Origin: an uncultured Candidatus Saccharibacteria bacterium
GTDB lineage: Bacteria; Patescibacteriota; Minisyncoccia; Phycocordibacterales; CAIRYW01
Length of the DNA stretch: 58,004 nucleotides
Assembly: GCA_964386665.1 (NCBI GenBank)
Contig: CAYLQP010000004.1
Span: 22,845-80,848, forward strand
Reading direction: 5' to 3'
A program made the position numbers and the translations under genes. Below, piece by piece: positions 11,263 to 27,197 of this stretch (the first letter of the stretch is position 1; each line of letters opens with the position of its first letter). The notes below the pieces were generated by a model. It made no database searches and was not told the DNA's origin. It saw only the letters and a program-made list of their open reading frames with translations.

Positions 11263-11304
11263 AATTCCCTTTGAAAAAAGGCTTTTTTCCTATACAATAG
11301 AGAA

Positions 11305-12024
11305 ATGAGTAATATTTTTCACACTTTTTTTTATAATCCTATTTATAACGGTCTTGTATTTCTTATTGATATAATCCCTGGTGGCGATGCTGGGGTGGCG
11401 GTAATACTACTTACTATACTTGTATCTTTGATTTTGTTCTCTGTTTCAAAAAAAGCCATAAGAACACAAATAAGGATGAAGGAAATGGAGCCTGAAATGA
11501 AGAAAATCAGAGAAACTGTTTCTGATAAACAACAACAAGCACTCCAAATGATGGCTCTATATAAAAAGTACGATATTAACCCTTTTTCTGTTATTGTTCT
11601 TGTGATTATTCAAATACCTGTTCTGTTGGCACTTTATTTTGTGTTTTTGAAAGGAGGATTACCTGAGATTAATACAGATATTTTGTACTCTTTTATAAAG
11701 GTTCCTCAAGTGGTATCTATGAACTTCCTTGGAATACTCGATATTACGCAAAAAAGCCTCTTCTTGGCCCTTTTGGCGGGTGTGACGCAGTTTATACAAG
11801 CAAAGGTGGCTACACCAAAACTTGAGCCAAGAAAAGAAGGTCAGGCCTCATTTAAAGATGATTTTCAAAGATCTCTCAATACACAGGTAAAATATGTATT
11901 CCCTGTGATTATTGCTGTTATTTCAGTTAACTTCCCTGCTGCTCTACCTTTGTACTGGTCTACAAGAAATATCTTTATGACACTACAAGAACTCTACGTA
12001 AAGAAGAATCTTAAAAATAAGTAA
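11305..12024 (+). CDS. yidC: membrane protein insertase YidC (short form)
   Basis: 239 aa, multi-TM, in the conserved rnpA-yidC-jag context. Confidence 0.9.
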   Translation: MSNIFHTFFYNPIYNGLVFLIDIIPGGDAGVAVILLTILVSLILFSVSKKAIRTQIRMKEMEPEMKKIRETVSDKQQQALQMMALYKKYDINPFSVIVLVIIQIPVLLALYFVFLKGGLPEINTDILYSFIKVPQVVSMNFLGILDITQKSLFLALLAGVTQFIQAKVATPKLEPRKEGQASFKDDFQRSLNTQVKYVFPVIIAVISVNFPAALPLYWSTRNIFMTLQELYVKKNLKNK

Positions 12025-12060
12025 TTGACTTTGGGGAATTAGTGATTAATATAGATTGAT

Positions 12061-12513
12061 ATGGAACATAAAATCAAATTAACCATAAAAAATCTTACTG
12101 ACCTCCTTGGTTTTGAACCTCTTGAAATTAACGTAACTAAACAACCAGGAGTATTTGTTATTGATTTACATACTCAGGATGAAAAAACATTCCTAGGCAA
12201 AGATAATGAAAGATTCAATGCTTTTTCTCATCTAGCTAAAAAAATGCTTGCAAAAGACGTCGATGAAGATACAAAATTTGTGATAGATATTAATAACCTT
12301 CGGGGCAAAAATGATGATGCCTTGAAGATTCGAGCAAACATTCTTGCAGATCGAGCACGATCATTCAAAAAAGATATGGAGTTTCCTCCAATGACTTCTT
12401 ACGAACGTAGGGTGGTTCATTCTGCTCTCGAAGGATCTCCTTTTATCAAGACAGAATCGGTTGGTGAAGGAAAGGAAAGACATCTTGTGATTAGATATAC
12501 AGGAGAGAACTAA
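12061..12513 (+). CDS. jag: Jag/KhpB-like RNA-binding protein (KH + R3H)
   Basis: 150 aa with the R3H signature ERRVVHSAL. It is in the conserved position after yidC. Confidence 0.8.
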   Translation: MEHKIKLTIKNLTDLLGFEPLEINVTKQPGVFVIDLHTQDEKTFLGKDNERFNAFSHLAKKMLAKDVDEDTKFVIDINNLRGKNDDALKIRANILADRARSFKKDMEFPPMTSYERRVVHSALEGSPFIKTESVGEGKERHLVIRYTGEN

Positions 12514-12516: not shown

Positions 12517-12544
12517 AACACCCCAGATCAAAAGGGTGTTTTTT
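12517..12544. terminator. bidirectional terminator between jag and the T4SS-like operon
   Basis: Stem acaccc / gggtgt flanked by an A-run and a T-run. Confidence 0.6.
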
Positions 12545-13949
12545 AGTTTGTTGTTTTTGTTGAAGTGCTTGTTTGTGTAGTAGTGGCAGTAGTTGTTGCA
12601 CTGTTTATTGTACTTGTTGCTGTACTTGAAATAGGTTTTTTTGTCTCACTTAGGATAAGTCCCCAAAACGAAAGATTCTTTTTGTTTATAAAAGTAAGAT
12701 AAGAGTCATCTTCTGAAATTTCTAGGCTTATTGCATCCATACTTTCTCCTCCATCTCTTTCTGGGATAGAAATAAGATTTGTTGTTGCCGTGTTGGTATT
12801 TATTTTCCAAATACTGTCATTAAAGGTTACTCTGCCTTGATACCAATAATCAGGGTATATTCCATTTGGGATAAGGACTGGTATAGCACAATACACAATA
12901 AAGGTTTCTTTTTTTGATGCGACGCATTTTTCAGGTAGTGTATTACCAAGAAAAACAGGTTCTGTTGAAGGTGTTTTTTGTTTGATACTGAAAAGAGAAA
13001 TACCGTTTCCTCCTCTTCCTACGAGATAATCTCCTTCCCCTACTGGTTTAATAGTAAGGCCAAATACACCTCCAAGTATTTTTGTCATATTTCCTGTGTT
13101 TGTATTGAGATTATATGCAAAACCTTGTGTATATCCAGATGGTTTTGTTGATATTGTTGCTTCATTTTCTTTGTTCCAAGAGAGAAGCCATTCACGCAGT
13201 GGCGATTCGTAAATCTTCTTTTTGTTTGTGTTGTTTGTGTTTGCTACTATCAAAGTTCCGCTCTCATTTTCATTATACAAAGAATAAAGTAATCGGTTTC
13301 GAAGCGGTGAAGCGGTAATTTCCTTTATATTATCATCAAGATTTAGACCAATAGACTCTTTTGTAATATCTGTATTTTGTATAATTGTAGTACTTGCGGT
13401 GGTGCTTGCTAACACGAGAGGGAGGTTTTTTAGAGTCACTGTATATGTTTTGATAAGTTCAGTATCTGTGTTATCCAAAAAACGTGCTACGAAAGAATCT
13501 GGATTCAAGAAAATGGCTTCATATGTTTTTGGAAGAGTGGTGTTTGAAATTTTTTTTGTGACAAGTGAATCTTTTGTTGTTTCAAAAACATGCCCTGTTG
13601 CCCTATCAACAAAACGCACTCGCACCTCTTCTTCTTTAGTTACTTCGTTTTTTGTTTTCCAAACAATAGATCCTGATGTAGGTCTTCCGTGAATCTTTCT
13701 GAGTTTTGATACTGTTGCAGTAGTTGTTGAGGTTGGTGATGATTCCTCTTCAAATACAGACTCTTCCCCTTCGAAAAGAGTGTCTGGGTCTCGAGATGGT
13801 TTACCAAAAGGAAATATCTCTCTTACTTTTTTGGTAAAAGCACTTTCATCTTCTTGTACTGGAGTTTTTGTAATAAAGAAAAGAGCACCTAAAATAAGGA
13901 GGAAAATGATTATAATAATACTTAATATGATTAATATTTTTCTTGGCAT
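12543..13949 (-). CDS. membrane-anchored exported protein, last gene of the T4SS-like operon
   Basis: 468 aa with an N-terminal TM (ILIILSIIIIIFLLILGALFFI) and a Ser/Thr-rich C-terminal tail. I recognised no motif. Confidence 0.6.
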   Translation of the reverse strand: MPRKILIILSIIIIIFLLILGALFFITKTPVQEDESAFTKKVREIFPFGKPSRDPDTLFEGEESVFEEESSPTSTTTATVSKLRKIHGRPTSGSIVWKTKNEVTKEEEVRVRFVDRATGHVFETTKDSLVTKKISNTTLPKTYEAIFLNPDSFVARFLDNTDTELIKTYTVTLKNLPLVLASTTASTTIIQNTDITKESIGLNLDDNIKEITASPLRNRLLYSLYNENESGTLIVANTNNTNKKKIYESPLREWLLSWNKENEATISTKPSGYTQGFAYNLNTNTGNMTKILGGVFGLTIKPVGEGDYLVGRGGNGISLFSIKQKTPSTEPVFLGNTLPEKCVASKKETFIVYCAIPVLIPNGIYPDYWYQGRVTFNDSIWKINTNTATTNLISIPERDGGESMDAISLEISEDDSYLTFINKKNLSFWGLILSETKKPISSTATSTINSATTTATTTQTSTSTKTTN

Positions 13950-13952
13950 AGT

Positions 13953-14987
13953 TTATTTTTTTATACGTAAGGTTGACCAATACTTTGCGCCTCCTATATA
14001 TGTTTCTTCAGAAGTTCCTCCTGATATAACACCATCTTTTCCAATTAACTCTGAAAGTATTTTAACACCTACTTCCAGATTTTTTTGTGGATTCTTTAGG
14101 TCTGTAGTAGTGATTCCCGTAAACCCATAACCTCTTGATGATTCATAAGAAAGTTGCATAAGGCCTGTTGAGATTATTTGTTGACCATCATTATTTAATC
14201 GCGGTGAACCATCTTTATTCCTTTCAGGATAAGTTAAAGTCGGGTCAAAACCAGATTCTTTTGCTGTAATTCCCGCGATTAAATTTGCCCAGTTTTGTGG
14301 GTTTCGTGCATCACCATCAGGGAAAAAGGCTGTTGCATCACGTGGATTAAGATTTGTTAAACCATATTTTTCTACAAGCCTTAACACTTCGTCATTCCAT
14401 TCTGCATTCTTGAACTTTGAGTTAAGTAATGGGTCGTTTGGATCAACGTACCCATCAACATCGTTGTTTGGACCTGTACGATTCGCTGAGGTGGTTGGAC
14501 CAATCTCTTTCATATCAAAATAAAACGCTGCTTCTTTGGAAAGAAGGTAATTAAAAGCTCGTGGATCCACAGACTTTATATCCAAACTTACATTAACAAG
14601 GTTTGGATCAATTGTTCTTAAAATAACAAAAGAACTAAGTGCTAATAACAAACCCATTATTGCATTACTGATTCGCTCTTTCCCTTCTTCCTTCCCTCCT
14701 ATCGCATCGGTAGTGATGTATTCAATTCCACCCATAATTATCATTAAGACGGCAAGTCCTGTAGCAAGAGCGATACCCATACGATAGAGTGTGCGGAAAT
14801 ATGTTTGTAAGTAATTATCATCAATCTTTACTGATGTTTGTGCCGAGCCTGCTACATCTGGGAGTGGTGCGAGCATCTCATAATTAACCGCACCATACGT
14901 GAAAGTTACAAAAGAAAACAAAAACATTAAACTGAGAATTACTTTTCGCATTACTATATATAATCTCATATTTTTATTCTTTTTCAA
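13953..14987 (-). CDS. VirB2/TrbC-like pilin module fused to a lytic transglycosylase (SLT) domain
   Basis: Signal peptide, then two hydrophobic helices flanking the charged loop TTDAIGGKEEGKERISN, which is the pilin-like topology. The C-terminal SLT motifs are AKESGFDP (catalytic E-S) and TGLMQLSYES. Confidence 0.75.
   Translation of the reverse strand: MKKNKNMRLYIVMRKVILSLMFLFSFVTFTYGAVNYEMLAPLPDVAGSAQTSVKIDDNYLQTYFRTLYRMGIALATGLAVLMIIMGGIEYITTDAIGGKEEGKERISNAIMGLLLALSSFVILRTIDPNLVNVSLDIKSVDPRAFNYLLSKEAAFYFDMKEIGPTTSANRTGPNNDVDGYVDPNDPLLNSKFKNAEWNDEVLRLVEKYGLTNLNPRDATAFFPDGDARNPQNWANLIAGITAKESGFDPTLTYPERNKDGSPRLNNDGQQIISTGLMQLSYESSRGYGFTGITTTDLKNPQKNLEVGVKILSELIGKDGVISGGTSEETYIGGAKYWSTLRIKK
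14575..14816. repeat. 242-bp block identical to 15579-15820
   Basis: A base-by-base comparison gave no mismatch over 242 bp. The flanks diverge immediately on both sides. Confidence 0.9.
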
Positions 14988-14998
14988 AGAAAACTTAC

Positions 14999-15955
14999 TT
15001 AGTTTGGTCTAAAAATATATGTAGAAAGACCTTGTGTTCCCTCATAATACCTCTGCCAGCTTGTTGCGGTATGGTTCTGCATAATTTGCTGATGGCTACT
15101 ACTATTTGAAATGATAGTTGCTCCTCCTGGTGCATTTACAATTCCAACATGACCTGTTTGTTTTCCTGATGTTGGAGAAAGGACAATATCCCCTGGTTGC
15201 GCAGAAGCAAGACCGCCTCGGACAAGAGTAAATCTATTATCACTTCTTAGGCTTTCGTACATATCTACAGTGGATAAGCTATTATTTACCGGCTTGCCAA
15301 GTGCATTTTCTACAATCATATTTACCGAATAAGCACAGGCAAGTCTTCCTCCATTAGTACCAGAAACATTACAGGTTGTTCTGTTTATTGCATCTCGAGC
15401 ACTTTTAAGAATTGCTTCACCCTGAGAAGTTGTTCCAAGATTTTGTAGTTGTTGTTCTTGTCGCCATTTTTCTTTATCTTCTTCGGTGACATTTAGAAAT
15501 TCGCTTGTGGTCCGTAATTCTTGTTCATAATATGCTTCAGACATAAGTAATTGTTGAAATGCTGCCTGATCCACTAATTTTATATCCAAACTTACATTAA
15601 CAAGGTTTGGATCAATTGTTCTTAAAATAACAAAAGAACTAAGTGCTAATAACAAACCCATTATTGCATTACTGATTCGCTCTTTCCCTTCTTCCTTCCC
15701 TCCTATCGCATCGGTAGTGATGTATTCAATTCCACCCATAATTATCATTAAGACGGCAAGTCCTGTAGCAAGAGCGATACCCATACGATAGAGTGTGCGG
15801 AAATATGTTTGTAAGTAATTTTCGTCTATTGTTACTTCTGTATCAATGCCTCCTGTTGCATTAGGTAGAGGGGCGAGCATTTGGTATTTAACTTGACCAT
15901 AAGTAAAATTAAAAAGAGAGAAAAAAAACATAAAAATTAATATAGTCTTTTTCAT
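14999..15955 (-). CDS. VirB2/TrbC-like pilin module fused to a CHAP/NlpC-P60-type cysteine peptidase domain
   Basis: It has the same pilin-like module as the neighbouring gene. The C-terminal GGRLACAYSVNMIV supplies the Cys and PGDIVLSP..GKQTGHVGIV supplies the His. Confidence 0.7.
   Translation of the reverse strand: MKKTILIFMFFFSLFNFTYGQVKYQMLAPLPNATGGIDTEVTIDENYLQTYFRTLYRMGIALATGLAVLMIIMGGIEYITTDAIGGKEEGKERISNAIMGLLLALSSFVILRTIDPNLVNVSLDIKLVDQAAFQQLLMSEAYYEQELRTTSEFLNVTEEDKEKWRQEQQLQNLGTTSQGEAILKSARDAINRTTCNVSGTNGGRLACAYSVNMIVENALGKPVNNSLSTVDMYESLRSDNRFTLVRGGLASAQPGDIVLSPTSGKQTGHVGIVNAPGGATIISNSSSHQQIMQNHTATSWQRYYEGTQGLSTYIFRPN
15579..15820. repeat. 242-bp block identical to 14575-14816
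   Basis: Second copy, offset by 1004 bp. It encodes the pilin-like helices of the paralogous gene. Confidence 0.9.
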
Positions 15956-15973
15956 TTTAATAATTTCTAGTGT

Positions 15974-16984
15974 TTAGTTTTCTGTTGAGAGGTTAATCGT
16001 TACTTGATTTCGGGCTTCTTGTAAAAGATTGGTTGGATGTTTAATAAGTACATTCACGAGTGACTTCCCTTCGGTGTTAGTGTCATATCTAAATAGGGTT
16101 GTATCAGTGTTGAAGATTGGAGAAGGTGTTCCATTAATATTCCACGTGTAATTCAATGAACCTTTTTTCTTTGAGGTGGTTTCAAAGAAAAAAGGTGAAG
16201 CCGCAAGACTCAATTCTTTGTTTTTGAGTGAGATCTCGGTAAGTGCCTTGTTGTGCAGTATTCCGTATAGAGGGTTGTTTTCATACAGTAATACTTCTGG
16301 GGCAAAGAAGTTAATAAAAGCTTCTCCTTTTGCTTTGTTTAAGAAATCGTCTTTGACTTCTACTTGAATAGTTTCGGGTTTAAGTAGGTATCCTCCTTTG
16401 AGTGAAAAAGTGTTTTTAAGAAAGCCTGACTGATCGTTTACTATTGAATAGTCTTGTTTCCATTTATAGGTTGGATTGAGAGGGTTTGTAATAACGCTAT
16501 TTTTATTAACAAAATGTGGAATTGCCACTGCGATAATGTTTCCAAGATAGCCTGGTAATGCCTTACCTTTATAAAATGGGGGTGTATAGCTTCTTGATTC
16601 CCAAATAACATCAACTTCTTGCGGAGTAAATGAAAAGGTTTTTTCTATATTTTTTCCTCCACCAAAAGGCACAATACTGACAAATACGTTTTGGGTTGTC
16701 CCGAGTGTGCCGTTGGTAAATTCAAATACTTGTTCTCCTCGCCCTGTTTTTTTTGTTACTCCGTTTATCTTCCAAGTAATAAATGCACGAGTAAGATCGG
16801 TTCCAAAGGCTTCAGCCTTTATTTTTATTTGATCACCAGTTTTTGGTGAGTCTGGTGTAACAATAAAAGAAACCTGTTCTTCTAGTTCAGGTATTTGGCT
16901 TGGAATTGATGTTTGTTGCCCAAAAGAAAAAACTGGAAACAATAAGAAGTATGTAAACGTAAGAAAAAAATATGTTCGTGACAC
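15974..16984 (-). CDS. secreted protein of the T4SS-like operon, function unknown
   Basis: 336 aa with the signal peptide MSRTYFFLTFTYFLLFPVFSFG. The composition looks beta-rich. Confidence 0.6.
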   Translation of the reverse strand: MSRTYFFLTFTYFLLFPVFSFGQQTSIPSQIPELEEQVSFIVTPDSPKTGDQIKIKAEAFGTDLTRAFITWKINGVTKKTGRGEQVFEFTNGTLGTTQNVFVSIVPFGGGKNIEKTFSFTPQEVDVIWESRSYTPPFYKGKALPGYLGNIIAVAIPHFVNKNSVITNPLNPTYKWKQDYSIVNDQSGFLKNTFSLKGGYLLKPETIQVEVKDDFLNKAKGEAFINFFAPEVLLYENNPLYGILHNKALTEISLKNKELSLAASPFFFETTSKKKGSLNYTWNINGTPSPIFNTDTTLFRYDTNTEGKSLVNVLIKHPTNLLQEARNQVTINLSTEN

Positions 16985-17079
16985 ACATATAGTATAATCA
17001 AATTATTGATTTGTATCAAATAGTTGTCTGTGATTTACAGAGACGTTTATAGAAACTAGTTTGTAACAAAATAAACAAA

Positions 17080-17847
17080 CTACTTCCCCATCTCATTAGT
17101 GAGGGTTTTTTTAAGGAGACCAGTTATTTTTGACCCACCTCCTTTTTGAGTTGGAGTACCTTTTTGAAGAGTAAGGTTTTCGGTTTGTGGTTCTACAGAA
17201 GGTGTTGGTTGTGGTGCGGGTGTCTGAGGTGCTTTTTTTGTTGCTGGAACATAGGGTGCTGGTGTTTGTCTTTTTGTTGGTTGTGGTGTACTTGTACTTG
17301 GCTTATTTGTTTGAGTTGGAGTACCTTTTTGAAGAGTAAGGTTTTCGGTTTGTGGCTCTACAGGAGGTGTTGGTTGTGGTGTACTTATAATTGGCTTGTA
17401 GCTTTGAATTGATTTGGGGTTTAAGGTGTTTTGAGGTGTAGGAGGAGTATTTTCCTTATTTGATTGTTGGTAATTTTTTTGTACTTGAGTTTGTGTTGTT
17501 GTTTCTTCTTCTGTTTGCGAACTTGGTTGTTTTGTGTTCGCATTTTGAGCTGCTACTTGTTGTGCTTGGGTATTGGCTAATTGAGCTTTTTGTTTTTGAT
17601 CGTTTTTTAACAATCTTTTTTTAAATGGTCCATAATAAAAAGAGAGTCTAAGAAACCCTCGGACAAGTATACCTCCTAAGATTGTAAAATCAGCAGCAAA
17701 TCCCCAAAGAGCGATTTGTCTTACCCACCCTTTTCCTATTTTTGTGAGTCGTTCACCAGAAAAAAGTCTTCCAAAAAGAAACTCAAACATCATAATAACA
17801 CTGCCGATTATTGGTATTGGACAAAGAAGAAAAAGAAATATTTTCAT
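17080..17847 (-). CDS. membrane protein with a Pro/Thr/Gln-rich repeat tail
   Basis: 255 aa. The N-terminal region is hydrophobic. The tail contains two copies of PQPTP.VEPQTENLTLQKGTPTQ. Confidence 0.6.
   Translation of the reverse strand: MKIFLFLLCPIPIIGSVIMMFEFLFGRLFSGERLTKIGKGWVRQIALWGFAADFTILGGILVRGFLRLSFYYGPFKKRLLKNDQKQKAQLANTQAQQVAAQNANTKQPSSQTEEETTTQTQVQKNYQQSNKENTPPTPQNTLNPKSIQSYKPIISTPQPTPPVEPQTENLTLQKGTPTQTNKPSTSTPQPTKRQTPAPYVPATKKAPQTPAPQPTPSVEPQTENLTLQKGTPTQKGGGSKITGLLKKTLTNEMGK
17145..17381. repeat. two 72-bp direct repeats (17145-17216 and 17310-17381)
   Basis: Two mismatches in 72 bp with a 165-bp period. This is in-frame, equal to 55 aa. Confidence 0.85.
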
Positions 17848-17850
17848 AGG

Positions 17851-19662
17851 TTATTGTTCGAGGGCTTTTCGAGCTTCTCGCATTTGAAGTACTTGGGCAG
17901 GGTCAGATGTAATGATCTGATCTTCGGTATAAGAACCGATAATTTTGATTGCAACGTGTTTAAGTCCCGCAAAGAAGATCCCCTCCCCTACGTCTGATTC
18001 AAGCAAGAGGTACTTTTCTTCTTCTGTAAGGTTAAACGTTCTTTGAATTTCATCAATTGATGATGGGGATTGTTTGAGGAGAAGTTGGATAGAAGAGTTT
18101 GTGATAATAGGTCCTCCATAAGGTGATTTAAGGAAGTCTTCAACGTCTTGGGTAATAGTTGAAAGTGCGAGGTAGTATTTTCTTCCTCGTTTTGCAAGAC
18201 CAAGAAGGAATGATGCTGTGTCGTCTGATTTCATCATCCACCATGCCTCGTCGATCACAAGAAGTCGTTTTTTTAGTTTTTGTCGGATAGAGTTCCAAAT
18301 AAAGTGGGTCACAATATACATTGCAACTGGTTTAAGTTCGTCTTCCATATCTCGAAGTGAGAAAACAACAAATTTCTTGTTGATATCAACGTTTGTTGGT
18401 CTGTTGATAAATCCAGCCCACGTTCCTTTTGTATATTTTTCGAGACGTTGTACGAGGGAAGATCCTCCTTCCATTCCGGCGAGTACAAGTTCAAAGTCAG
18501 ACATAAGAGGTGGTTCAATTGCAGTGAAATCTGATGTTGGAGTGATATCTTTGAGTGCGTATGTTTCACTAATCGCTCGGTCAATGATTGAATCTTCTTC
18601 TGGAGTGAGTCCTCCAAGCATAATACGAAACAGACCAACAAGGTTGATGATGTTTGATCGAAGTACGTCGGCTGGTGATTCATCTTCTCGTGCAACCGGA
18701 AGATCAAATGGGTTGATGTGGTGTTCAGAAGTAAGAGAAATATTAAAATATCGCCCCCCTGTTGCTTCTGCCATATACTCATATTCTCGTTCAGGGTCGA
18801 TGACAATCACATCAATATCAAACATAAGCGAACGAAGGATTTCGAGTTTTGTACAATAACTTTTTCCCGCTCCGGCTTTGGCAAAGGTAACTGAGTTGTA
18901 GTTTTCGAGAGAAAATCGGTCAAACAAAATAAGGCTTGAGTTGTGACGGTTAACTCCATACAGAATCCCTTTATCTGAAGTGAGGTCAAAAGAAATAAAT
19001 GGAAATATACTTGAGAGTGGTGATGAGTTTAGTTTTGAATTAACAGCAAGCTCATCTTGTCCAAGAGGCGCGACACTTCTAAACCCTTGTTCTTGTTGGA
19101 AGAGCGCTGGTTTGATGTATACGAGTTTTGATTCGAGAATTGAAACGATTTCAGATTCGATTTTGTCTATTTCATCTTCTGTTTCTCCGTAAATAGTAAA
19201 ATAAAGTCCTACATCAAAGATTCTTTCTTGGGCTTGTTGAAGCTGATCTCGGAGGCTTTCGAGGTCCTGGTAGGCAGTATCAAGAACTGGATCTCGCACC
19301 AACCCCTTTTCTTCTCTGTCACTTATTTGACTTTGTACCTCTGCCACCTTTTTCTTAAATTGGCGTAGTACTTGAGCAGTATCGATTGGATGGATAAATA
19401 TCGAAATATCAAATATTTTGTCTAAGTTAATGATTGGTGCAAACCAGCTCTCTGTTAAGAAACGCGGGTAAGAGATAACAAAAAAGGTTCTTGCAATCTT
19501 GCTTCCAAGATTGAGTTCTTTTGAAGAAATCTTGAGTGCTGATGGTGCGAGTACATCTTCAAGTTCAAGAACACCTGATTGATAAATTTCCTGTGGCAAA
19601 ATTGCAGTCACAGGTCTTTCAAGTTCTTCGTTCTTTTTTCCAAATAAACCAAAAAATGCCAT
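17851..19662 (-). CDS. virB4: VirB4/TraC-family type IV secretion ATPase
   Basis: 603 aa with Walker A FAKAGAGKSY, Walker B LLVIDEAWWMM and a C-terminal TQDVEDF region. Confidence 0.85.
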   Translation of the reverse strand: MAFFGLFGKKNEELERPVTAILPQEIYQSGVLELEDVLAPSALKISSKELNLGSKIARTFFVISYPRFLTESWFAPIINLDKIFDISIFIHPIDTAQVLRQFKKKVAEVQSQISDREEKGLVRDPVLDTAYQDLESLRDQLQQAQERIFDVGLYFTIYGETEDEIDKIESEIVSILESKLVYIKPALFQQEQGFRSVAPLGQDELAVNSKLNSSPLSSIFPFISFDLTSDKGILYGVNRHNSSLILFDRFSLENYNSVTFAKAGAGKSYCTKLEILRSLMFDIDVIVIDPEREYEYMAEATGGRYFNISLTSEHHINPFDLPVAREDESPADVLRSNIINLVGLFRIMLGGLTPEEDSIIDRAISETYALKDITPTSDFTAIEPPLMSDFELVLAGMEGGSSLVQRLEKYTKGTWAGFINRPTNVDINKKFVVFSLRDMEDELKPVAMYIVTHFIWNSIRQKLKKRLLVIDEAWWMMKSDDTASFLLGLAKRGRKYYLALSTITQDVEDFLKSPYGGPIITNSSIQLLLKQSPSSIDEIQRTFNLTEEEKYLLLESDVGEGIFFAGLKHVAIKIIGSYTEDQIITSDPAQVLQMREARKALEQ

Positions 19663-19670
19663 ATATAATT

Positions 19671-20306
19671 TTATTTTACTAATGTGCTTCCAATATTCAT
19701 TGGCTTCTCTACTTCTCCAGGGTTAAAGGTTTTATAGTAAAGCTCAATAAGTTCTTCTGTTCCAAGTGGCACTCCTCGAACTCCAAGTCGAGACAATCCT
19801 TGTACTACGACTTCCATTCGCTGAAGAAGTTGAGTTCTATTTTCTTCAAAACTATCCGCGTCTCCTTTATGGTTTGTCTTCTGCATTATACCAGAAAGAA
19901 TCCCTTTTTTTGTTTCAATGATTGCTGGAGTATATGGAATGATAACAAAAAATGTTTTTGTCATAATATTTACTGAGCTTGTGAAATTCTTGATGAAGTC
20001 GATGTATTCGTTGGTTTGTATCCGAAGAAGTTCGTTTTTTTGTTCTTTTGCGACGTCTTCGAGAAGACCAATATAAGGTTTTATATCAAGGCGTCGTGAT
20101 TGGGCAGTAATTTGAATAGAAAAGTTAAGTGAGTTAAGAAAGTTTTGAAATTGATAGATGATTGCAGTCTGTTCATCAACACTTTTGAGTGCAAAGTTAA
20201 TAGACGAAGTCATTACAACAGCACGCATTGAACCATCTTGCATAATTGCAATTCCGTCACGAATCTCTTTTATAGGTACAAAACTTTGGGTGCTTTTTGA
20301 TTGCAT
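19671..20306 (-). CDS. T4SS-operon protein, possibly a detached VirB4 N-terminal-like module
   Basis: 211 aa, 8 bp upstream of virB4. The start (FVPIKEIRDGIAIMQDGSMRAVVMTSSINFALKSVDEQTAII) resembles the start of Gram-positive VirB4 homologues. The resemblance was judged by eye only. Confidence 0.5.
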   Translation of the reverse strand: MQSKSTQSFVPIKEIRDGIAIMQDGSMRAVVMTSSINFALKSVDEQTAIIYQFQNFLNSLNFSIQITAQSRRLDIKPYIGLLEDVAKEQKNELLRIQTNEYIDFIKNFTSSVNIMTKTFFVIIPYTPAIIETKKGILSGIMQKTNHKGDADSFEENRTQLLQRMEVVVQGLSRLGVRGVPLGTEELIELYYKTFNPGEVEKPMNIGSTLVK

Positions 20307-20308
20307 AT

Positions 20309-20791
20309 TTATTTATATGGATTATACGCGTTATTTGCTTTTTTTGCATCTTGATATACGTTGTTCTCGTTTGTGTACTCTTTTGCGTCTGGCATTGTTT
20401 CATTGATATCTAGGTTCCAGGTGAGTTCTCGTAGTTTTGATTTTGAGAGTTTTGGTACATAGAGTTTTGAAACATTTGCGCCATTCACTATGACATTTGT
20501 TTTAGGAGCTTTTTTCTCTTTTTTCCAAATATATAACTTGTGAGTGAAAAAAAACTTTACTGCTGAAATAACTGTCTCGAGAAAAGGCTTGTTGTTTACC
20601 TTGTAAAACGCTAGTGCAACTGAGAATGCGGCAATAGGAAGAATAATAAGAAATGCAATAAAACTTGGGAGTAATCTATATACCAAAAAACACATTCCTC
20701 CCCCACCCACAAGATATACAAACTGTTTGAATGTAAGTGGTCCAAAGATCTTGTCTTCGATTTCGATAAATTGTGGGACTTGATATTGCAT
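20309..20791 (-). CDS. PrgI-family / VirB3-like small membrane protein
   Basis: 160 aa. MQYQVPQFIEIEDKIFGPLTFKQFVYL is followed by two TM helices, and the gene lies just upstream of the VirB4 genes. Confidence 0.6.
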   Translation of the reverse strand: MQYQVPQFIEIEDKIFGPLTFKQFVYLVGGGGMCFLVYRLLPSFIAFLIILPIAAFSVALAFYKVNNKPFLETVISAVKFFFTHKLYIWKKEKKAPKTNVIVNGANVSKLYVPKLSKSKLRELTWNLDINETMPDAKEYTNENNVYQDAKKANNAYNPYK

Positions 20792-20809
20792 AAAACTTTT
20801 TTGATTCTT

Positions 20810-21589
20810 TTATATAGCTTCTCGATACGGATCAATCTTCTTTTCTGGAGCATTTGTTGGTGTTACTTGAGTTTCTGGAAGAGGTGTTGTTTCTTGTTTT
20901 GGTGTGATTGCTTGTTCTATGGGCGCCTCTTTTTTTGGGATGACTTCAACTGGGGCCTTTTCAATGAATGAATGCATAGTGACAATGTTAGTGAGCTTTT
21001 CGTTATCGATATGACTTAAGATTTTTTCACCCAGGGTTTTAAGTTCGTTGGTGAGAGGAGATGTTTCAACGGTAGGTTCTGGCGATGTTGTGATTGTTTC
21101 TTGTGCCACGAGAGGTTCCTCTGTCTTCTTTTCCCCTTGGATTACTTTCCGCACTGTTGCTTTCGTTGGGTTCTCTATTTCTGCGAGGAGATCCTTGGGA
21201 TTGAGTCTGGTTTCATCTTCTTCATCTTCTTCGTGGATATGAATGAGTGTTTGAGGTTTGAAAGGGCTCTCGTGTTTGTATGTCTCAACCAAGATATGTT
21301 TGATTGGTTCAAAGACCGTATCGTTGATGTCTCGGACAATAGTACTTGCATCAAGAAGTGAAAGATGGAGTGCGCTTGAGATTTCTGTTTCGAGGTTTTT
21401 TGTGGCAATAATACCCATAACAGTATCCATAACAATATCGTGTAATATACCCGCTTCATCGATATGAAGATGGTGTTTTTCTGCAAGAGCAAATATTTTT
21501 TCACTTTGCTCTGATGATGTACAAAACTCCTGAATCTCTTTTGGGAGTTTTGCAAATAGTTCTCTGTATTGTTCTCGGGTAAGTTTCAT
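20810..21589 (-). CDS. acidic soluble protein of the T4SS-like operon, function unknown
   Basis: 259 aa with no TM segment and a Glu/Thr/Pro-rich C-terminal half. Confidence 0.55.
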   Translation of the reverse strand: MKLTREQYRELFAKLPKEIQEFCTSSEQSEKIFALAEKHHLHIDEAGILHDIVMDTVMGIIATKNLETEISSALHLSLLDASTIVRDINDTVFEPIKHILVETYKHESPFKPQTLIHIHEEDEEDETRLNPKDLLAEIENPTKATVRKVIQGEKKTEEPLVAQETITTSPEPTVETSPLTNELKTLGEKILSHIDNEKLTNIVTMHSFIEKAPVEVIPKKEAPIEQAITPKQETTPLPETQVTPTNAPEKKIDPYREAI

Positions 21590-21593
21590 AATA

Positions 21594-24422
21594 TTAAGGG
21601 TTTGAAGGGTTTATTGGTGGAATAGATGGAGGAGGTGGAACTCCAGTGCCTGGAGGAGGTACCGCAGGGTTAGGTGGTGTGTGAGAATTATTTTGAGATC
21701 CACCACTTGGAGGAGGTACCGCAGGGTTAGGTGGTGTGTGAGAACTATTCTGAGATCCACCACCACTACCAAATGGATTAGCTGGTTGTGGAGAAGTGGA
21801 TGCAGCAGACTGTCTATTTTGTCTTGTTTGTCTGTTTTGTGTTCTTGTTTTCATTGCGTCTTGTGCAATACCCTCTCCTTGCACACCCATTTCTGTTCCA
21901 TAGTATCGTGCCATATTTTTTCCGACTCGTCCTGTTGTAAAGTCTTTTGGTAACATTTTTTCTTCGTAATATTCAATTGCGTGATCAAGCGTTGAATCAT
22001 TACTTTCATTAAAGGTATTTGTTTCGCCAATACTTCGTAAGTATGCATTTATCTTAGTTCTAAATGCTCTCTTTGATGCTAAGTCGTTTGTATCAACTGC
22101 GTGTTTATATTCTTGAAGTCTTTTTATTTGTGGATCCATTGAACCACTTCCAAGGTCGTTATAATTTTGTTCATTTAATCGGCCGCTCCGTTGAAGTTGT
22201 TCAAAAAGGTTTCCTTGTATGAGATCCGCAACCATCGGGTTTGTAAGCTGCTCGGTCGAAAGTCCTTCTTGTTGTTTAGTGTTAAGGTTCGCAAAATACT
22301 TACGCAGTGCTACTCCATCGTCGCTATTTCTCAGTTTGAGCTGATTATCTTGTATCTTTGTTGTAACAGTCTTTAATTCATTTTCTGCTTTTGTAATATC
22401 AGCTTGATCTGCACCAGATCTTTTTAAAGCATCTAGTTTTTTTGTTAGTTCTTCTCGTTTTCCATTTAACCCTTTAAATTTTATTTTTGTTCCATCAGCT
22501 TGTGTTTCTTCAAATTCTTCATCTAATTCTTTGAATTCTTTAGTAGATTCAAGTTTTTTCTGCATCTCATCGTATCGTTGTCTATGTACAGGAAGAGCCC
22601 CTTCTTGTTTTCGTTTAAGCGCATCTTGTTGGTTAGGATCAAGACGACCAAGAAGTTTGTTTTTTGCTTTTTCTATTCTTGCTTTTTCTTTTGTATCTCC
22701 TTCTGCTTCTGCCGCCTTTATTTTTGCATCAAATTGCTCCATCATTTCTGCCTGATCATCAAGTTTCATTGCTTCCCATGCCTTTTCAAGTGCAACTCGA
22801 ACGTTAAGATCCTTTTCTGCTTTTAAGGTCATTTCAGCTAAGAATTCTGCTTGTGCAGCTGGTTCTCCTCGCATTTCATACAACGCTTCTGCAATACCAT
22901 GTTGCTTTTCATCAAACTCTTCTTTGAAGCTATTACCTTCTCCTACTTTTGCATTTACCCCTGCTTTCAACATACTTTTTACAGCACCAGCTCCTGCGCC
23001 CAATATACCACCTTTTGAAATCATCTTTTCCATTCCGGTTTTAAATTGACCTCTCCAACCATGACCGACTGTACCTGTTTTATCTTTTCCTTCATAAAGT
23101 GCATAAGCAGCTTTCCCAATTGTTCGTCGGACAGCTGCTTGTACTGGTCGTCCCCCAAGGTTAGCCTTGAGTTTTTTGTATGCTCCCATTGCTGCACCTG
23201 CTCCACTGGCCCCCATCTTCTCTCCTGCTACAAGGGCCATAATAAAGAAGTTGATGACTATGATGTAATTCACGACAGTTGGAATATCAAACCAAAACCC
23301 AGTATCTTTTCTATTGAGTGTACTTTGAAAATTGGGATCAAGCATTATATGAAAGGTTATCCAGATAATAGCAACAAATATAGGTGCATAAAATGACTCT
23401 GCAATCAGTTTTTCCCACCACTCATGTGCATATCCTTCAGTCTTATGTAGTAAACTTCCTGCAAACGCAAGTGAAGAGGTCATTATAAGAATCATAATGG
23501 TGACGAGCCGTTTTATAAATATAAGTGTGGCAGCCAAAAAGATACAAAAAACGAAAAACATTGCAATACTTCCCATTAAAAAGATGGTTCCAGCATTACT
23601 CTTTTGGGCAAAAGCTGTGGCACCAGACATATCTGCTCCTTTTGCATCTCCTTTTTTGTAGTCAGCAAATAATTTTTGAAATTGAAAAGAGGCCATAAAT
23701 GCACCTCCAATACCTCCCTTTGTAGTAGAAGGGCCATCATATGTTTTTGTAAATAAATCTGCTATATTATCTGTTTCTGCGCTAGGTTGAATTTTTTTAT
23801 AAAAACTAATTGCAAGAATATTTGAACTATCAACCACAACCTTAGCAAAAAACATACTAAAGTTGATAAGAATGGCGATAAGTACTAGTTTACTAAGCGT
23901 ATGTTTTACTCCATGTTCATTAAGTCCAAGAATTGTTGATATTGCTAAGTAAATAAGAATGAATATAAGAAGAATGTTAGTGAAATCTCGAAACACTTTC
24001 CATACGGCGCTAATGGCACCAATCTTATTTATTGTTTCTGCCATCCCAATCACTGTAAATTCAAAAACTATATTGAAAAGCCAAACACTAAATCCAAGTA
24101 TCCATGCTACCATCGCCAGTATGTAGTAAAATACTTTTTCAAAACAGTTCCATAGGCTTGAGTTATTATAGGCCTGACCATCAGGAAGCAGTACATTTTT
24201 TTCTCCAAGTGTTTCAAAAACACAAAGTCCGTTGTCATTATTTTTATTAGCTTGGACTGCCGCAATCTGACCATCAACAAACTCCTTGGGCATCATTGCC
24301 ATTGCAAGCACCTTGGGACCTGTATTTGGGATAACAATATGAAGCCAAAAAAGAGAAAAAGCAAAAACCAAAAAGATTTTTTTTATCAATAAGGTTTTGT
24401 TTTTTTCTCTTTTTTCAAACAT
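21594..24422 (-). CDS. large polytopic membrane protein, VirB6/TrbL-like by topology and context
   Basis: The N-terminal ~460 aa carry many TM helices. A long Lys/Glu-rich coiled-coil-like region and a Pro-rich tandem-repeat C-terminus follow. I moved the start to the MFEKREKNK Met (24422) so it does not overlap the divergent PAP2 gene. Confidence 0.55.
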   Translation of the reverse strand: MFEKREKNKTLLIKKIFLVFAFSLFWLHIVIPNTGPKVLAMAMMPKEFVDGQIAAVQANKNNDNGLCVFETLGEKNVLLPDGQAYNNSSLWNCFEKVFYYILAMVAWILGFSVWLFNIVFEFTVIGMAETINKIGAISAVWKVFRDFTNILLIFILIYLAISTILGLNEHGVKHTLSKLVLIAILINFSMFFAKVVVDSSNILAISFYKKIQPSAETDNIADLFTKTYDGPSTTKGGIGGAFMASFQFQKLFADYKKGDAKGADMSGATAFAQKSNAGTIFLMGSIAMFFVFCIFLAATLIFIKRLVTIMILIMTSSLAFAGSLLHKTEGYAHEWWEKLIAESFYAPIFVAIIWITFHIMLDPNFQSTLNRKDTGFWFDIPTVVNYIIVINFFIMALVAGEKMGASGAGAAMGAYKKLKANLGGRPVQAAVRRTIGKAAYALYEGKDKTGTVGHGWRGQFKTGMEKMISKGGILGAGAGAVKSMLKAGVNAKVGEGNSFKEEFDEKQHGIAEALYEMRGEPAAQAEFLAEMTLKAEKDLNVRVALEKAWEAMKLDDQAEMMEQFDAKIKAAEAEGDTKEKARIEKAKNKLLGRLDPNQQDALKRKQEGALPVHRQRYDEMQKKLESTKEFKELDEEFEETQADGTKIKFKGLNGKREELTKKLDALKRSGADQADITKAENELKTVTTKIQDNQLKLRNSDDGVALRKYFANLNTKQQEGLSTEQLTNPMVADLIQGNLFEQLQRSGRLNEQNYNDLGSGSMDPQIKRLQEYKHAVDTNDLASKRAFRTKINAYLRSIGETNTFNESNDSTLDHAIEYYEEKMLPKDFTTGRVGKNMARYYGTEMGVQGEGIAQDAMKTRTQNRQTRQNRQSAASTSPQPANPFGSGGGSQNSSHTPPNPAVPPPSGGSQNNSHTPPNPAVPPPGTGVPPPPSIPPINPSNP
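21651..21764. repeat. 2 x 57-bp tandem repeat
   Basis: Units at 21651-21707 and 21708-21764 with three mismatches. They encode GGSQN.SHTPPNPAVPPPS twice at the C-terminus of the VirB6-like protein. Confidence 0.85.
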
Positions 24423-24476: not shown

Positions 24477-25232
24477 ATGAATCAATCAAAAACTAAGTAT
24501 TACTTATTGATAATTTTAATTTTTCCTCTTGTCATTTTTCTTACTTTAGGGTACAAAAATATTAATTCTTTTACTTTTTCTAAAACAGAAGAATGGGACC
24601 AAAATTTAATACATTCTATACAAAGCAATCGGATGCTCATTAATAATACAGTTTCATATATTAATTTAGGCACTCCCCCAAAAAATTCTTCAAAAGTGAC
24701 TCAAGATGAGCTTGCATATCTGATTAGTCTTAAAAAAGAAAGAACAGAAGAGAAGGTGAAGGAAATAAAAAGCGAAATAAATATAGAATACTGGATTTTT
24801 GATAATAAGTTTTTCTACGAGTATTTACAAGATAAGCAATATTCTGAATTTTTATTATCAGAGTTATCGACGTTGTACCCAATCACATTATATCAAAAAC
24901 AAATTTTTGATCGGGCTAGACCTTATATTTTAGATTCCAATGTTGATCCAATACTCTATCCTAAACATCCTGCATATCCAAGTGGTCATGCTACCCAGGC
25001 ATATTTTTTGGCTGAATTATTTTCACTTATTAATCCCTCTAAAAAAGAAATATATTTTGCCAATGCAAAGGTAATTGCCCATAATAGAGAAATTGCGGGA
25101 GTCCATTACCCAAGTGATAGTCAGGCGGGAAAAGAACTGGCTCAACAATACTTAAAGTTTAGGTTAAGTGATAATTCGTTTATTACAAACCTGAAAAAAG
25201 CAAAAGATTCTTTATCTCTGGAGAAAAATTAA
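24477..25232 (+). CDS. PAP2-superfamily phosphatase
   Basis: 251 aa with an N-terminal TM. PAP2 motifs are RARPY, PSGHA and NREIAGVHYPSD. Confidence 0.8.
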   Translation: MNQSKTKYYLLIILIFPLVIFLTLGYKNINSFTFSKTEEWDQNLIHSIQSNRMLINNTVSYINLGTPPKNSSKVTQDELAYLISLKKERTEEKVKEIKSEINIEYWIFDNKFFYEYLQDKQYSEFLLSELSTLYPITLYQKQIFDRARPYILDSNVDPILYPKHPAYPSGHATQAYFLAELFSLINPSKKEIYFANAKVIAHNREIAGVHYPSDSQAGKELAQQYLKFRLSDNSFITNLKKAKDSLSLEKN

Positions 25233-25238: not shown

Positions 25239-27197
25239 TTATTCTTGCCCAATACTAAGCACTTCGTTGACTGCAATCTTCACAAGTTGATTTACAAGAG
25301 CTGATACGAGTTCATCAAATTCATCAGCTATTTCAATTCGTCGTTCTGCACTACCAATTCGTTGATTGATAACTGATTCGATTATTTGCCCTGGCGTACC
25401 TGTCTTTTCGTATTGTGGATCACAAGACCCATCCGCGCGAGTTGGACCATCACAGTATTTGAAGTTCTTGTAGCCTCTTGTCCAATCTAGTTCAATTTTT
25501 ACTGCATTTTGTCTTTGGCTAATACGAGTTCGAAGTTCGTCTTGAGCAAGAATTCGTGCCCCATGAATGTTGTTTGGTTGTTGAATGAGTTCAAACCATC
25601 CTGGAAGCCCTCCTTGGTTCCAGTCTTGTATAAAGCCGTTATAATTATTTTTTATAGCACTTAAAGTACATTTTGATTTATTGGCATATTTATTTGTATA
25701 TCCTCCAATTGTGTCTACAACAAGCTGTACTCGAAACGGCGCACATACATCAACTCCTATTGATTCCCCAAGGATTTCTTGAACAAAATTTCCCGCTTCT
25801 CTATCCGCAACGTCTTTGAGAAACGCTCCTGCGTTTTCAACAAAAACTGGTTTTCCTTGGAATCCTGAATTAACCCACTGTATGGTTGATTCCATTATGT
25901 AATGTATAAGTTCGTTTGCAATACAAAAACCGATCGCATCAAGACTTGGAGCCTCAAAAAGGTTGTTTATAAATCCAGTTAAGATGCCTCCCTGTTGAGC
26001 ATCAAGAGATCGTTCTTTCTGAGCCACTTTTCCGGTGTTTGCTTCAATAACTGGGTTAGTTACAGGTACTTTTGGATCAATTATACTATTTATGAGATTA
26101 CCTACTTTTGCTGTAATAAATCCACTTACGGCAGACTTTAAAAAACCTGCGGCAGCACTTACGATTGCGGTAAGCGCGCTTTTTGCAACTTCACCTACCA
26201 AGGTAGTGATAGCACAAGTTGCTGTAACTGTCGCGATTCCTTCAAGGATTGATGGACTATCTGACTCACCTCCACCTTCTTCAATTCCGCCAACTCCTGG
26301 AATTTCACCTATCTCTTCACCGTTTGGACCCGTTTCGCTGTGTTCTGGTGCTGTTGCAGCAGGAGATGTTTCTTCAACGACTGAAAAGAAATTATCACTA
26401 AGATCACTTGCAAGTAGTGTTTCTGGAGTACAGTTTGCTAATCCGCCACAAGGAACTTTGTTGTAAAGAGAAAGTTTGAGTTTATAAGACCCTGGTGGAA
26501 AGTCTTTTACCACTGTTGAAGAAATTGTGGCAATTTTTGGAATATTAAAATAAAAAGAGCCGTTTGCTGGGAGTGGGTATATGGTTCCTAGTTTAAAAGA
26601 ATTCGTTGCTATACTTCCTACTATTTCTATAACAATAGCTCCTTGTGTTGGTGGATTTGTTATTGAATAACTTCCCGGATATGTTTTTCCTATTCGGTAA
26701 ATTGTACTAATGTTTGGATTAAGTATTTTTATGCTTGTTCCTGCTGGAGCTTGGTCTGTTGTGACGGTAAGGATTTTTGAATTACTAATACCAGATGGCG
26801 TTTGAACAGAAACAGTGTGCGCTCCTGGTGTTACTGCCACAGGAGTCTGATCACACCCAGGGATTGCAACGGGTAGACCTAAAAAGCAGTCATTTTTTAT
26901 TTGACTTGGAATTGTAAAAGTAATGTTTGTTGTAGAAGATGCTGTGATTGTTGCACCTATTTTTCCATCAATAAGAATCCTGCTTTGACCTGGAACAAAT
27001 GATATTCCTGTTGCTACTACATTACTTCCAACTGTTCCTGAACTAGGATTAATTGACGTTAAACTAAAGCTTGTTGCTGCTCCTGGATCACTTGGAACTT
27101 GGGCAAACGTATGAATTCCAGTACTTAAAACAAAAAAAGAGATAAGTACGGTGAGTGTAAAAGTTTTTTTGAAAAAAGTACCTAGTTGTAATCGCAT
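25239..27197 (-). CDS. large secreted protein with N-terminal IPT/TIG-like Ig domains, a hydrophobic central segment and an unknown Cys-containing C-terminal domain
   Basis: 652 aa with a signal peptide. SLTSINPSSGTVGSNVVATGISF is an IPT-like start. A Gly/Glu linker and then hydrophobic helices follow. Confidence 0.6.
   Translation of the reverse strand: MRLQLGTFFKKTFTLTVLISFFVLSTGIHTFAQVPSDPGAATSFSLTSINPSSGTVGSNVVATGISFVPGQSRILIDGKIGATITASSTTNITFTIPSQIKNDCFLGLPVAIPGCDQTPVAVTPGAHTVSVQTPSGISNSKILTVTTDQAPAGTSIKILNPNISTIYRIGKTYPGSYSITNPPTQGAIVIEIVGSIATNSFKLGTIYPLPANGSFYFNIPKIATISSTVVKDFPPGSYKLKLSLYNKVPCGGLANCTPETLLASDLSDNFFSVVEETSPAATAPEHSETGPNGEEIGEIPGVGGIEEGGGESDSPSILEGIATVTATCAITTLVGEVAKSALTAIVSAAAGFLKSAVSGFITAKVGNLINSIIDPKVPVTNPVIEANTGKVAQKERSLDAQQGGILTGFINNLFEAPSLDAIGFCIANELIHYIMESTIQWVNSGFQGKPVFVENAGAFLKDVADREAGNFVQEILGESIGVDVCAPFRVQLVVDTIGGYTNKYANKSKCTLSAIKNNYNGFIQDWNQGGLPGWFELIQQPNNIHGARILAQDELRTRISQRQNAVKIELDWTRGYKNFKYCDGPTRADGSCDPQYEKTGTPGQIIESVINQRIGSAERRIEIADEFDELVSALVNQLVKIAVNEVLSIGQE

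Follow-up and report, generated by a model that had tools for sequence, protein, structure and literature searches.

The 58,004-nt stretch of contig CAYLQP010000004.1 analysed here (the window) carries, next to its probable replication origin, an operon of ten genes (g1 to g10 in order of transcription; Table 1) that resembles a type IV secretion system (T4SS). We consider it likely that the operon encodes a core-genome T4SS of the Paceibacteria (Parcubacteria, candidate phyla radiation, CPR), which derives from the conjugation machinery of monoderm bacteria (CD1110 / MPF-FATA), is no longer linked to a relaxase and a coupling protein, and is passed on vertically at a site beside oriC. The motor and channel set of the inner membrane is there: a VirB4 split into a TrsD-like protein and an ATPase, a PrgI/VirB3 protein and an extended VirB6. 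An extracellular part is completed by an Ig-array protein, a beta-propeller anchored in the membrane, and exported proteins that are variable and lectin-like.

The mechanical list of open reading frames (ORFs) gives ten ORFs between 12543 and 24485, all on the minus strand and separated by gaps of 2-95 bp, which bears out the original prediction of a single co-directional operon. The start of g1 was placed at the ATG at 24422, the boundary first proposed; it corresponds to M22 of the mechanical ORF, a column that is invariant across 50 homologues. The mechanical ORF of g9 is 344 aa long, and alignment with its paralogue g8 indicates that the gene probably starts at 14951. Related loci were collected by a VirB4 scan with one genome per species, which gave at least 581 relatives, and the locus counts given below rest on the best 80 of these.

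The VirB4 motor and its membrane partners

The g5 protein scored 359 bits against the NCBIfam model conju_CD1110 ('VirB4-like conjugal transfer ATPase, CD1110 family'; cut-off 325), and matched Pfam P-loop_TraG (6e-25) and PDB entry 4ag5 (2.4e-40). Its Walker A (GAGKS at residue 264) and Walker B (VIDEAW at 469) motifs are intact. The g3 protein scored 43.1 bits against PF12666 PrgI (6.3e-11; cut-off 27) and also matched TcpE (5.8e-4). Thus, the VirB4 and PrgI/VirB3-like assignments made originally both survived profile searches. The closest plasmid-borne VirB4s are 27-35% identical to g5 and come from Bacillota and Actinomycetota, all of them monoderm; the monoderm type was assigned from the profile score and these nearest plasmid relatives.

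The 211-aa product of g4 had been counted among six products with no recognisable function, and for this protein the claim did not hold. It covers positions 2-163 of the 752-position conju_CD1110 model, of which g5 covers positions 180-732, and it matched VirB4_plasma (1.4e-8) and TrsD (2.3e-4). When the g4 family profile was aligned by hhalign with a plasmid VirB4 that is not split (783 aa), it covered residues 21-194 (E=7e-6, probability 84%). Judged by these alignments, g4 is the split-off N-terminal domain of VirB4. A homologue of g4 was present in 76/80 loci, with a median identity of 58%, and a homologue of g3 in 74/80. Among the other products counted as functionless, g7 and g10 could be given folds (described below), while g2 and g6 keep that status.

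Hydropathy places ∼7 transmembrane (TM) segments in the first ∼420 aa of the g1 protein, followed by a Lys/Glu-rich probable coiled coil and a Pro-rich tail. The window protein alone gave no Pfam match. A profile of the TM region, built from 50 homologues and compared with the PDB, gave TrwI, the VirB6 of R388 (7o3v_F), as its top match (E=2.4e-4 over ∼200 residues), and Pfam TrbL/VirB6 matched 6 of the 50 family members (best 2.6e-4). The proposal of a VirB6-like polytopic protein was borne out by these matches, on the strength of which we regard g1 as an 'extended VirB6', a homologue of VirB6.

Position beside the probable origin and apparent separation from conjugation

The operon ends ∼1.9 kb from the probable origin and is read towards it. 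On the left flank, dnaN and dnaA lie on the minus strand and rpmH, rnpA, yidC and a Jag/R3H gene on the plus strand. dnaA and the rpmH-rnpA-yidC-jag genes diverge from a gap bearing DnaA-box-like sites, and a second cluster of boxes is found between dnaA and dnaN. Because the number of DnaA-box-like sites over the whole window is not above chance (23 against 17.7 expected), the evidence for oriC is the clustering of boxes at dnaA. This clustering and the gene arrangement support the location next to oriC that had been proposed. The GC skew of the plus strand is positive over roughly 10-22 kb and the genes are read towards oriC; the operon is therefore head-on to replication, again as first suggested. 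The right flank holds a PAP2-family phosphatase gene (plus strand), two exported-protein genes (minus strand), ksgA, uvrD and further housekeeping genes. Promoter and terminator scans of the window gave results at or below shuffled expectation and were not used.

VirB4 is 75-84% identical in the best 80 of the at least 581 relatives, all of which are metagenome-assembled genomes of Paceibacteria/Parcubacteria, including Taylor-, Zambryski-, Kaiser- and Nomurabacteria, several of them mislabelled 'Saccharibacteria'. The earlier suspicion that this is a CPR organism was thereby confirmed. The gene order is uvrD-ksgA-(u317-u652)-g1-g2-PrgI-g4-VirB4-g7-(pilin proteins)-g10, then convergent jag-yidC, then dnaA-dnaN, with rnpA-rpmH-oriC between yidC and dnaA. 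Both flanks were present in 37 of the 40 loci longer than 20 kb, essentially all of which kept this order, and in ∼40 genomes from several Paceibacteria families the cluster has the same location and the same housekeeping neighbours. The sole exception to the conserved order is locus L077 (JBBTSQ010000032.1, ∼8845-12389), where the g4-VirB4-PrgI segment is inverted relative to the other T4SS genes. Orientation is head-on in every related locus that reaches dnaA, and no relatives were found on viral contigs. Because of the synteny with housekeeping genes and the 75-84% identity of VirB4, the cluster is, as far as sequence comparison can tell, vertically inherited core genome and not a mobile element. 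The signs of a mobile element (variable location, boundaries, compositional difference) were not seen, since the synteny is fixed in ∼40 genomes and the GC content of the operon is like that of its surroundings.

No ORF resembling VirD4, a relaxase or VirB11 was found in the 58-kb window, which covers 12 kb on one side of the operon and 33 kb on the other, and the original statement to this effect stands. The sole other secretion ATPase in the window is a PilB-type T2SSE protein (742-2448) that belongs to type IV pili. In the related loci, a crude screen of ORFs of at least 400 aa with no window homologue detected no VirD4-like Walker A ORF, other than VirB4, within 10 kb of virB4 (0/80 loci). 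Neither a relaxase/VirD4 pair near the operon nor the set of oriT, relaxase and coupling ATPase of a conjugative T4SS was thus found in the window. Together with the fixed core-genome synteny, the missing relaxase and VirD4 support the view that the apparatus is not conjugative. This was the original reading, with protein export, DNA uptake or cell-cell contact as possible roles, and the same conclusions had been reached in print by Wang et al. 2023 (PMC10633639) and Quinonero-Coronel et al. 2025 (PMC12102498). The phrase 'no coupling protein' applies only to the neighbourhood and not to the genome. A system of the monoderm type would not be expected to have VirB7-10 or VirB11. In Southlakia epibionticum, a VirD4-like gene is present and is not essential (Quinonero-Coronel et al. 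2025, PMC12102498).

We regard it as highly improbable that the operon is one part of an ordinary element, conjugative or integrative, with the relaxase, VirD4 and oriT located beyond the window. VirB4 does pass the cut-off of an NCBIfam family named for conjugal transfer, and 1917 of the 2788 plasmids bearing a VirB4 relative are conjugative; however, its 75-84% identity among relatives is far above that usual for mobile-element proteins, and relaxases are found in only 103 Patescibacteria genomes against 2,474 virB4 genes (PMC12102498). The window contains a tyrosine recombinase at 45784-46746 and leaves 22.8 kb of the contig outside, but the recombinase has housekeeping genes around it and is 21 kb distant, and nothing conjugative lies within 12 kb of one operon end or 33 kb of the other. 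The recurrence of the same position and neighbours in ∼40 genomes of several Paceibacteria families, and the lack of a compositional anomaly, also argue against such an element.

The tyrosine recombinase is XerC/D-like and on the plus strand. Five tRNA genes (38462-38532, 39565-39648, 50182-50253, 50596-50666 and 51629-51699) are likewise far from the operon, and there was no sign in the window that the recombinase or these tRNA genes bound a T4SS-containing mobile element.

Pilin modules joined to cell-wall hydrolases

The products of g8 and g9 had been described as two pilin-hydrolase fusions, and the profile matches agree with this. Both contain a PF18895 pilin module (1e-5 in g8), although at 24.8 and 25.9 bits the two proteins are just below the cut-off of 26.6. 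The C-terminal part of g9 matched SLT clearly (8.6e-10), while that of g8 matched CHAP (2e-3) and NlpC/P60 (1.2e-2), both weakly. Hydropathy gives the TM hairpin of g8 as residues 58-76 and 93-111, and LACAYS at 205 and TGHVG at 267 were read, unaligned, as its Cys and His motifs. The g9 protein contains AKESG and GLMQL stretches, which we take to be the SLT catalytic motifs. The predicted topology, with a signal peptide, a TM hairpin and the C-terminus outside, places the lytic transglycosylase of g9 and the Cys/His peptidase of g8 on the outer side of the membrane. Between them, g8 and g9 provide the two activities that Gram-positive conjugative plasmids combine in one bifunctional hydrolase of the VirB1 type, encoded after virB4. 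The architecture is not that of PrgK, TraG or CwlT, however, as the activities are on two proteins, each on a PF18895 module.

PF18895 matched 44 of the 52 members of the pilin-module family at E<=1e-3, with relatives exceeding the cut-off, and a profile of the module retrieved PF18895 pilins, mostly short and stand-alone, at 1e-34 to 1e-24. In the window, hmmsearch with this profile found g8 and g9 only, and thus no stand-alone pilin. Over 148 aa the two proteins share 77% identity, including a long stretch without any difference, and a direct repeat spans their modules in the DNA (Table 1). Within a genome, pilin modules are 86-100% identical (5/5 genomes with two such genes); between genomes the median identity is 37%.

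In the related loci, 50 of the 62 proteins with a pilin module have a C-terminal extension of at least 60 aa, and the remaining 12 are stand-alone (<60 aa). The extensions of the 50 proteins fall into 33 BLAST clusters. Heads recognised by Pfam are nearly all peptidoglycan enzymes: NlpC/P60, VanY, two M15 families, YkuD, SLT and Amidase_5. The largest clusters of heads outside the recognised families have 7 and 5 members. The exceptions were one match to Extensin-like_C and one to Pur_ac_phosph_N, the latter upstream of the pilin module.

A possible, if doubtful, explanation of these proteins is that the VirB2-like modules are membrane anchors only. The fusions would then amount to a VirB1 in two pieces, whose tethered hydrolases open up the cell's own wall around a channel of the Gram-positive type, and no pilus would form. 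Stand-alone pilins are absent from the window, and no immunity-like partner genes were evident. In addition, Gram-positive T4SSs are normally pilus-less and have VirB1-type hydrolases that are membrane-anchored and bifunctional (PMC12102498; plasmid comparison). However, the module is a bona fide member of PF18895 whose closest database relatives are short stand-alone pilins, and stand-alone versions account for 12/62 proteins at the loci. If the module were purely an anchor, there would be no reason to expect 86-100% identity between paralogues alongside ∼37% between genomes, and a housekeeping wall-opener would hardly be expected to swap heads among 33 sequence clusters.

A bolder reading, to which we give a small chance, is that the VirB2-like module is a shared handle for the delivery or assembly of polymorphic peptidoglycan-cutting heads. 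An enzyme-armed pilus or conduit would then cut the wall of the host and not only the cell's own, and the heads would be host-range determinants, like polymorphic toxins or phage tail lysins. The identity of the modules within a genome may, on such a scheme, be due to gene conversion or recent duplication.

Further components, related systems and significance

The g7 and g10 proteins are exported, and their models are an Ig-like array and a beta-propeller (Table 1). Foldseek gave generic Ig/FnIII-array matches only for g7, and TolB and WD40-type propellers only for g10. Homologues were found in 74/80 (g7) and 61/80 (g10) loci. Either protein had been a candidate for VirB8, which is NTF2-like; this was ruled out by the models.

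The soluble g2 protein consists of a conserved N-terminal domain of ∼100 aa, a disordered Pro-rich linker and a conserved C-terminal D-P-Y, in which D253, P254 and Y255 are nearly invariant among homologues. A homologue lies at the same position in 25/80 loci. Pfam, NCBIfam and PDB searches, including profile searches, gave nothing specific for g2; the D-P-Y after the linker may be a docking peptide. The g6 protein holds the slot of the small polytopic membrane proteins that come after virB4 in relatives, but is a positional counterpart only, as no sequence homology to these proteins was detected. The tails of both g6 and g1 are repetitive, with a 72-nt repeat unit (97% identity) in the Pro/Thr/Gln tail of g6 (17145-17411) and a 57-nt tandem repeat unit (89% identity) in the Pro-rich tail of g1 (21642-21755). 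These repeats are likely to be length-variable surface or linker regions.

Table 1. Features of the operon and its neighbourhood (positions in the window)
Feature	Position	Strand	Description	Basis
g1	21594-24422	-	Extended VirB6-like polytopic membrane protein, 942 aa from ATG 24422	Hydropathy and family profile
g2	20810-21589	-	Acidic soluble protein, pI 5.0, 259 aa	Conserved N-domain, Pro-rich linker, D-P-Y
g3	20309-20791	-	PrgI/VirB3-like membrane protein, 160 aa	PF12666
g4	19671-20306	-	TrsD-like, split-off VirB4 N-terminal domain, 211 aa	NCBIfam and hhalign
g5	17851-19662	-	VirB4 ATPase, C-terminal two thirds, monoderm CD1110 / MPF-FATA type, 603 aa	Profile and PDB matches
g6	17080-17847	-	Small membrane protein with Pro/Thr/Gln-rich repetitive tail, pI 10.1	Hydropathy
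g7	15974-16984	-	Exported protein, three tandem Ig/FnIII-like beta-sandwich domains	AlphaFold pLDDT 91.6
g8	14999-15955	-	Signal peptide, VirB2-like pilin module (two TM helices), C-terminal CHAP/NlpC-P60-like peptidase, 318 aa	PF18895, CHAP
g9	13953-14951	-	Signal peptide, VirB2-like pilin module, C-terminal SLT lytic transglycosylase	SLT 8.6e-10, PF18895 2.3e-5
g10	12543-13949	-	N-terminal TM anchor, disordered linker, extracellular beta-propeller, Ser/Thr-rich tail	AlphaFold pLDDT 86.5
u652	25239-27197	-	Exported protein, Ig-like N-terminal part, conserved C-terminal domain	Synteny in relatives
u317	27207-28160	-	Acidic membrane-anchored exported protein, TSP3-type calcium-binding repeat	Syntenic upstream gene
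Direct repeat	14553-14837 and 15557-15841		285 nt, 95% identity	Spans pilin modules of g9 and g8
Probable oriC region	9062-10648		Two clusters of four DnaA-box-like 9-mers each (9062-9212; 10601-10648)	Clusters flank dnaA
dnaA	9219-10592	-	dnaA	Between both DnaA-box-like clusters

Two exported-protein genes, u317 and u652, lie upstream of g1. In relatives, the u652 homologue is directly upstream of g1 on the same strand (3422-5035 against 5038 in locus L002), and the system is therefore probably twelve genes long. The u652 family (39/80 loci) has variable N-terminal domains, including F5/8 type C lectin-like and fn3 domains, and a C-terminal domain of ∼230 aa with the conserved motifs WINSGF, QNNPYGAY and TPG, for which profile searches found no Pfam or PDB match. 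From its position, u652 is probably an upstream member of the T4SS, and it is a candidate T4SS-associated adhesin. The PAP2-family phosphatase gene (24477-25232, plus strand) is lodged between u652 and g1; its start overlaps the mechanical TTG ORF of g1 but lies clear of the real start (ATG 24422). None of the related loci gave a PAP2 homologue (0/80), and the gene looks like a lineage-specific insertion that split an ancestral operon.

Elsewhere in the window, the PilB-type gene (742-2448, plus strand) encodes a type IV pilus extension motor with an MshEN domain and is followed by ruvB, a YebC-family gene and ruvC. It is 10 kb away from the T4SS, and the type IV pilus and T4SS genes are therefore both origin-proximal here. 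A group of minus-strand genes at 33723-37299, encoding a ComM/Mg-chelatase-like protein, a DksA/TraR zinc-finger protein, a 338-aa protein and an S24 LexA-like peptidase, has a DNA-damage or competence flavour.

Systems of this kind have been described before. Saccharibacteria and other CPR bacteria were reported to have VirB4, VirB6 and VirB2 alongside small secreted proteins that form an array (McLean et al. 2020, PMC7427843). In Southlakia, the T4SS genes SEML1_0006-0019 were found to be essential by transposon sequencing (Tn-seq), and for the cluster, in which pilins were noted and coupling or relaxase proteins were not recognised, protein export or another role was proposed (Wang et al. 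2023, PMC10633639). A survey of 2,474 virB4 genes placed those of Patescibacteria in a monophyletic clade, sister to MPF-FATA, with TrsD, PrgI, VirB6 and VirB2-like pilins, almost no relaxases, and VirD4-like genes mostly far from virB4 (PMC12102498). The same survey found dnaA, dnaN, rnpA, rpmH and ksgA as frequent neighbours of Paceibacteria virB4 and VirB1 homologues tied to virB4 specifically in Paceibacteria. A 2025 review treats the Patescibacteria systems as a new T4SS subgroup (PMC12857230).

The operon shares with the surveyed systems an MPF-FATA-related VirB4 with TrsD and PrgI beside it, a weakly detectable VirB6, PF18895 modules near virB4, VirB1-type hydrolases, the lack of a relaxase or coupling protein nearby and the dnaA, dnaN, rnpA, rpmH and ksgA neighbourhood. 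By VirB4 type, TrsD, PrgI, VirB6, the PF18895 module and a dnaA-proximal context free of relaxase and coupling protein, it appears to be a member of the Patescibacteria clade. In its pilin modules it is the reverse of the published arrays, which consist of 2-11 stand-alone genes with a mean identity of 25% (PMC12102498). The survey takes up gene dosage and not orientation, and it describes neither pilin-hydrolase fusions, nor near-identity of modules within a genome, nor the head-on orientation.

The cluster of Southlakia epibionticum ML1 (SEML1_0004-0019; PMC10633639) is likewise a minus-strand operon, within ∼20 kb of the genome start and with no recognisable relaxase or coupling protein, in the order VirB6-like protein, PrgI, 293-aa protein, 612-aa VirB4, hydrolase and Ig/PEGA exported protein. 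It differs in that six stand-alone pilins are encoded separately on the opposite strand and that the lysozyme-like hydrolase (643 aa) is a protein of its own. It also has two large VirB6-like proteins and an NTF2-like (VirB8-like) protein, whereas the window has no stand-alone pilin, enzymes fused to pilin modules and no identified VirB8-like protein. In Southlakia, the T4SS genes occupy the minus strand from 3.7 to 21.4 kb, close behind recF where the genome sequence begins (PMC10633639 supplement), and head-on, origin-proximal placement seems to be common to two Patescibacteria classes.

A plasmid of Clostridium perfringens (NZ_CP143494.1; CD1110/CD1115 type) encodes MobC, a relaxase, DUF3801, VirD4, two small genes, PrgI, a 783-aa VirB4 and an 850-aa SLT-domain hydrolase. 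PrgI, VirB4 and an SLT plus NlpC-like hydrolase follow in the same order as in the window, and the plasmid VirB4 is ∼31% identical to that of the window over 89% of its length. However, the block from MobC to VirD4 directly upstream is absent from the window, where VirB4 is split into 211 and 603 aa and where two proteins take the place of the one bifunctional hydrolase, which has no PF18895 module. The SLT domain of g9 aligned to residues 419-531 of the 850-aa protein (E=5e-4); the match between the C-terminus of g8 and its NlpC-like end was weak (E=0.14). Bordetella Ptl and Brucella VirB are also VirB4-powered secretion systems with no VirD4, and their substrates may first cross by Sec (PMC12102498, PMC12857230), but they belong to diderms and include VirB7-11 as well as an outer-membrane core, and sequence affinity to them is limited to VirB4/VirB6/VirB3.

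Several points weigh against a conduit-forming, non-conjugative T4SS. The profile of the pilin module gave no significant match to VirB2 structures (E=0.41), PF18895 is just under its cut-off in both window proteins, and the module bears a head of ∼190-200 aa, with which it may or may not polymerise. No VirB8-like (NTF2) component was identified among the operon products, g7 and g10 having other folds. Outside the window lie 22.8 kb of the 80.8-kb contig and the rest of the genome, and Patescibacteria often carry VirD4-like genes at a distance from virB4 (PMC12102498). Searches with the proteins at the edges of the window gave only short Logan contigs of run SRR12762291 (5.1 and 2.8 kb). The essentiality result comes from a different class, Saccharimonadia (Southlakia Tn-seq, PMC10633639), and the sequence is silent on the substrate and the direction of transport.

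A machine for DNA uptake, like Helicobacter ComB or archaeal Ced, is very unlikely in our view. Host DNA would in that case be taken up as a source of nucleotides or for recombination. ComB and Ced, too, lack a relaxase and a coupling protein, and Patescibacteria are unable to make nucleotides, but the VirB4 protein scored only 38.9 bits against the CedB model NF041017 (cut-off 700), in a match confined to the P-loop region. In the ABY1 class, T4SS loci adjoin comF, recG and radA (PMC12102498), and uvrD and comM-like genes are present in the window; the uvrD-ksgA synteny, however, may be a conserved origin-proximal housekeeping order. In Southlakia, deletion of comEC ends competence but not viability, while the T4SS is essential (PMC12857230, citing PMC10633639), and the essentiality of the T4SS is therefore not due to ComEC-dependent uptake.

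If the operon is, as we think likely, a core-genome T4SS of monoderm descent, the VirB4 hexamer would dock on VirB3/VirB6 and pull pilin modules out of the membrane. A short conduit or pilus would be assembled from these at the surface, crossing the cell wall through an opening made by their hydrolase heads. The surface structure would mediate contact with the host cell and exchange, through protein export or the import of host material, and not conjugation. By analogy with the homologous Southlakia system, the T4SS is probably required for epibiotic growth.

The system itself, its lack of a relaxase, its proximity to dnaA and its essentiality by Tn-seq in a Saccharibacterium have already been published (McLean et al. 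2020; Wang et al. 2023; Quinonero-Coronel et al. 2025). The pilin-hydrolase fusions, the absence of stand-alone pilins, the variable heads, the identity of modules within a genome and the head-on orientation may be new details; literature searches, which took in part of the supplementary tables of PMC12102498, gave no description of pilin-hydrolase fusions.

The Patescibacteria T4SS belongs to the small number of machines with a demonstrated essential role in the epibiotic life of a very large and mostly uncultured group. The window provides a clean Paceibacteria example, with VirB4 as a two-gene split of the plasmid enzyme and with a testable peculiarity, namely pilin modules that carry interchangeable cell-wall enzymes as fusions and are homogenised within each genome. 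Should the host wall be a target of the heads, these would be candidate host-specificity factors; otherwise, the locus is an expected and already described feature of these bacteria.

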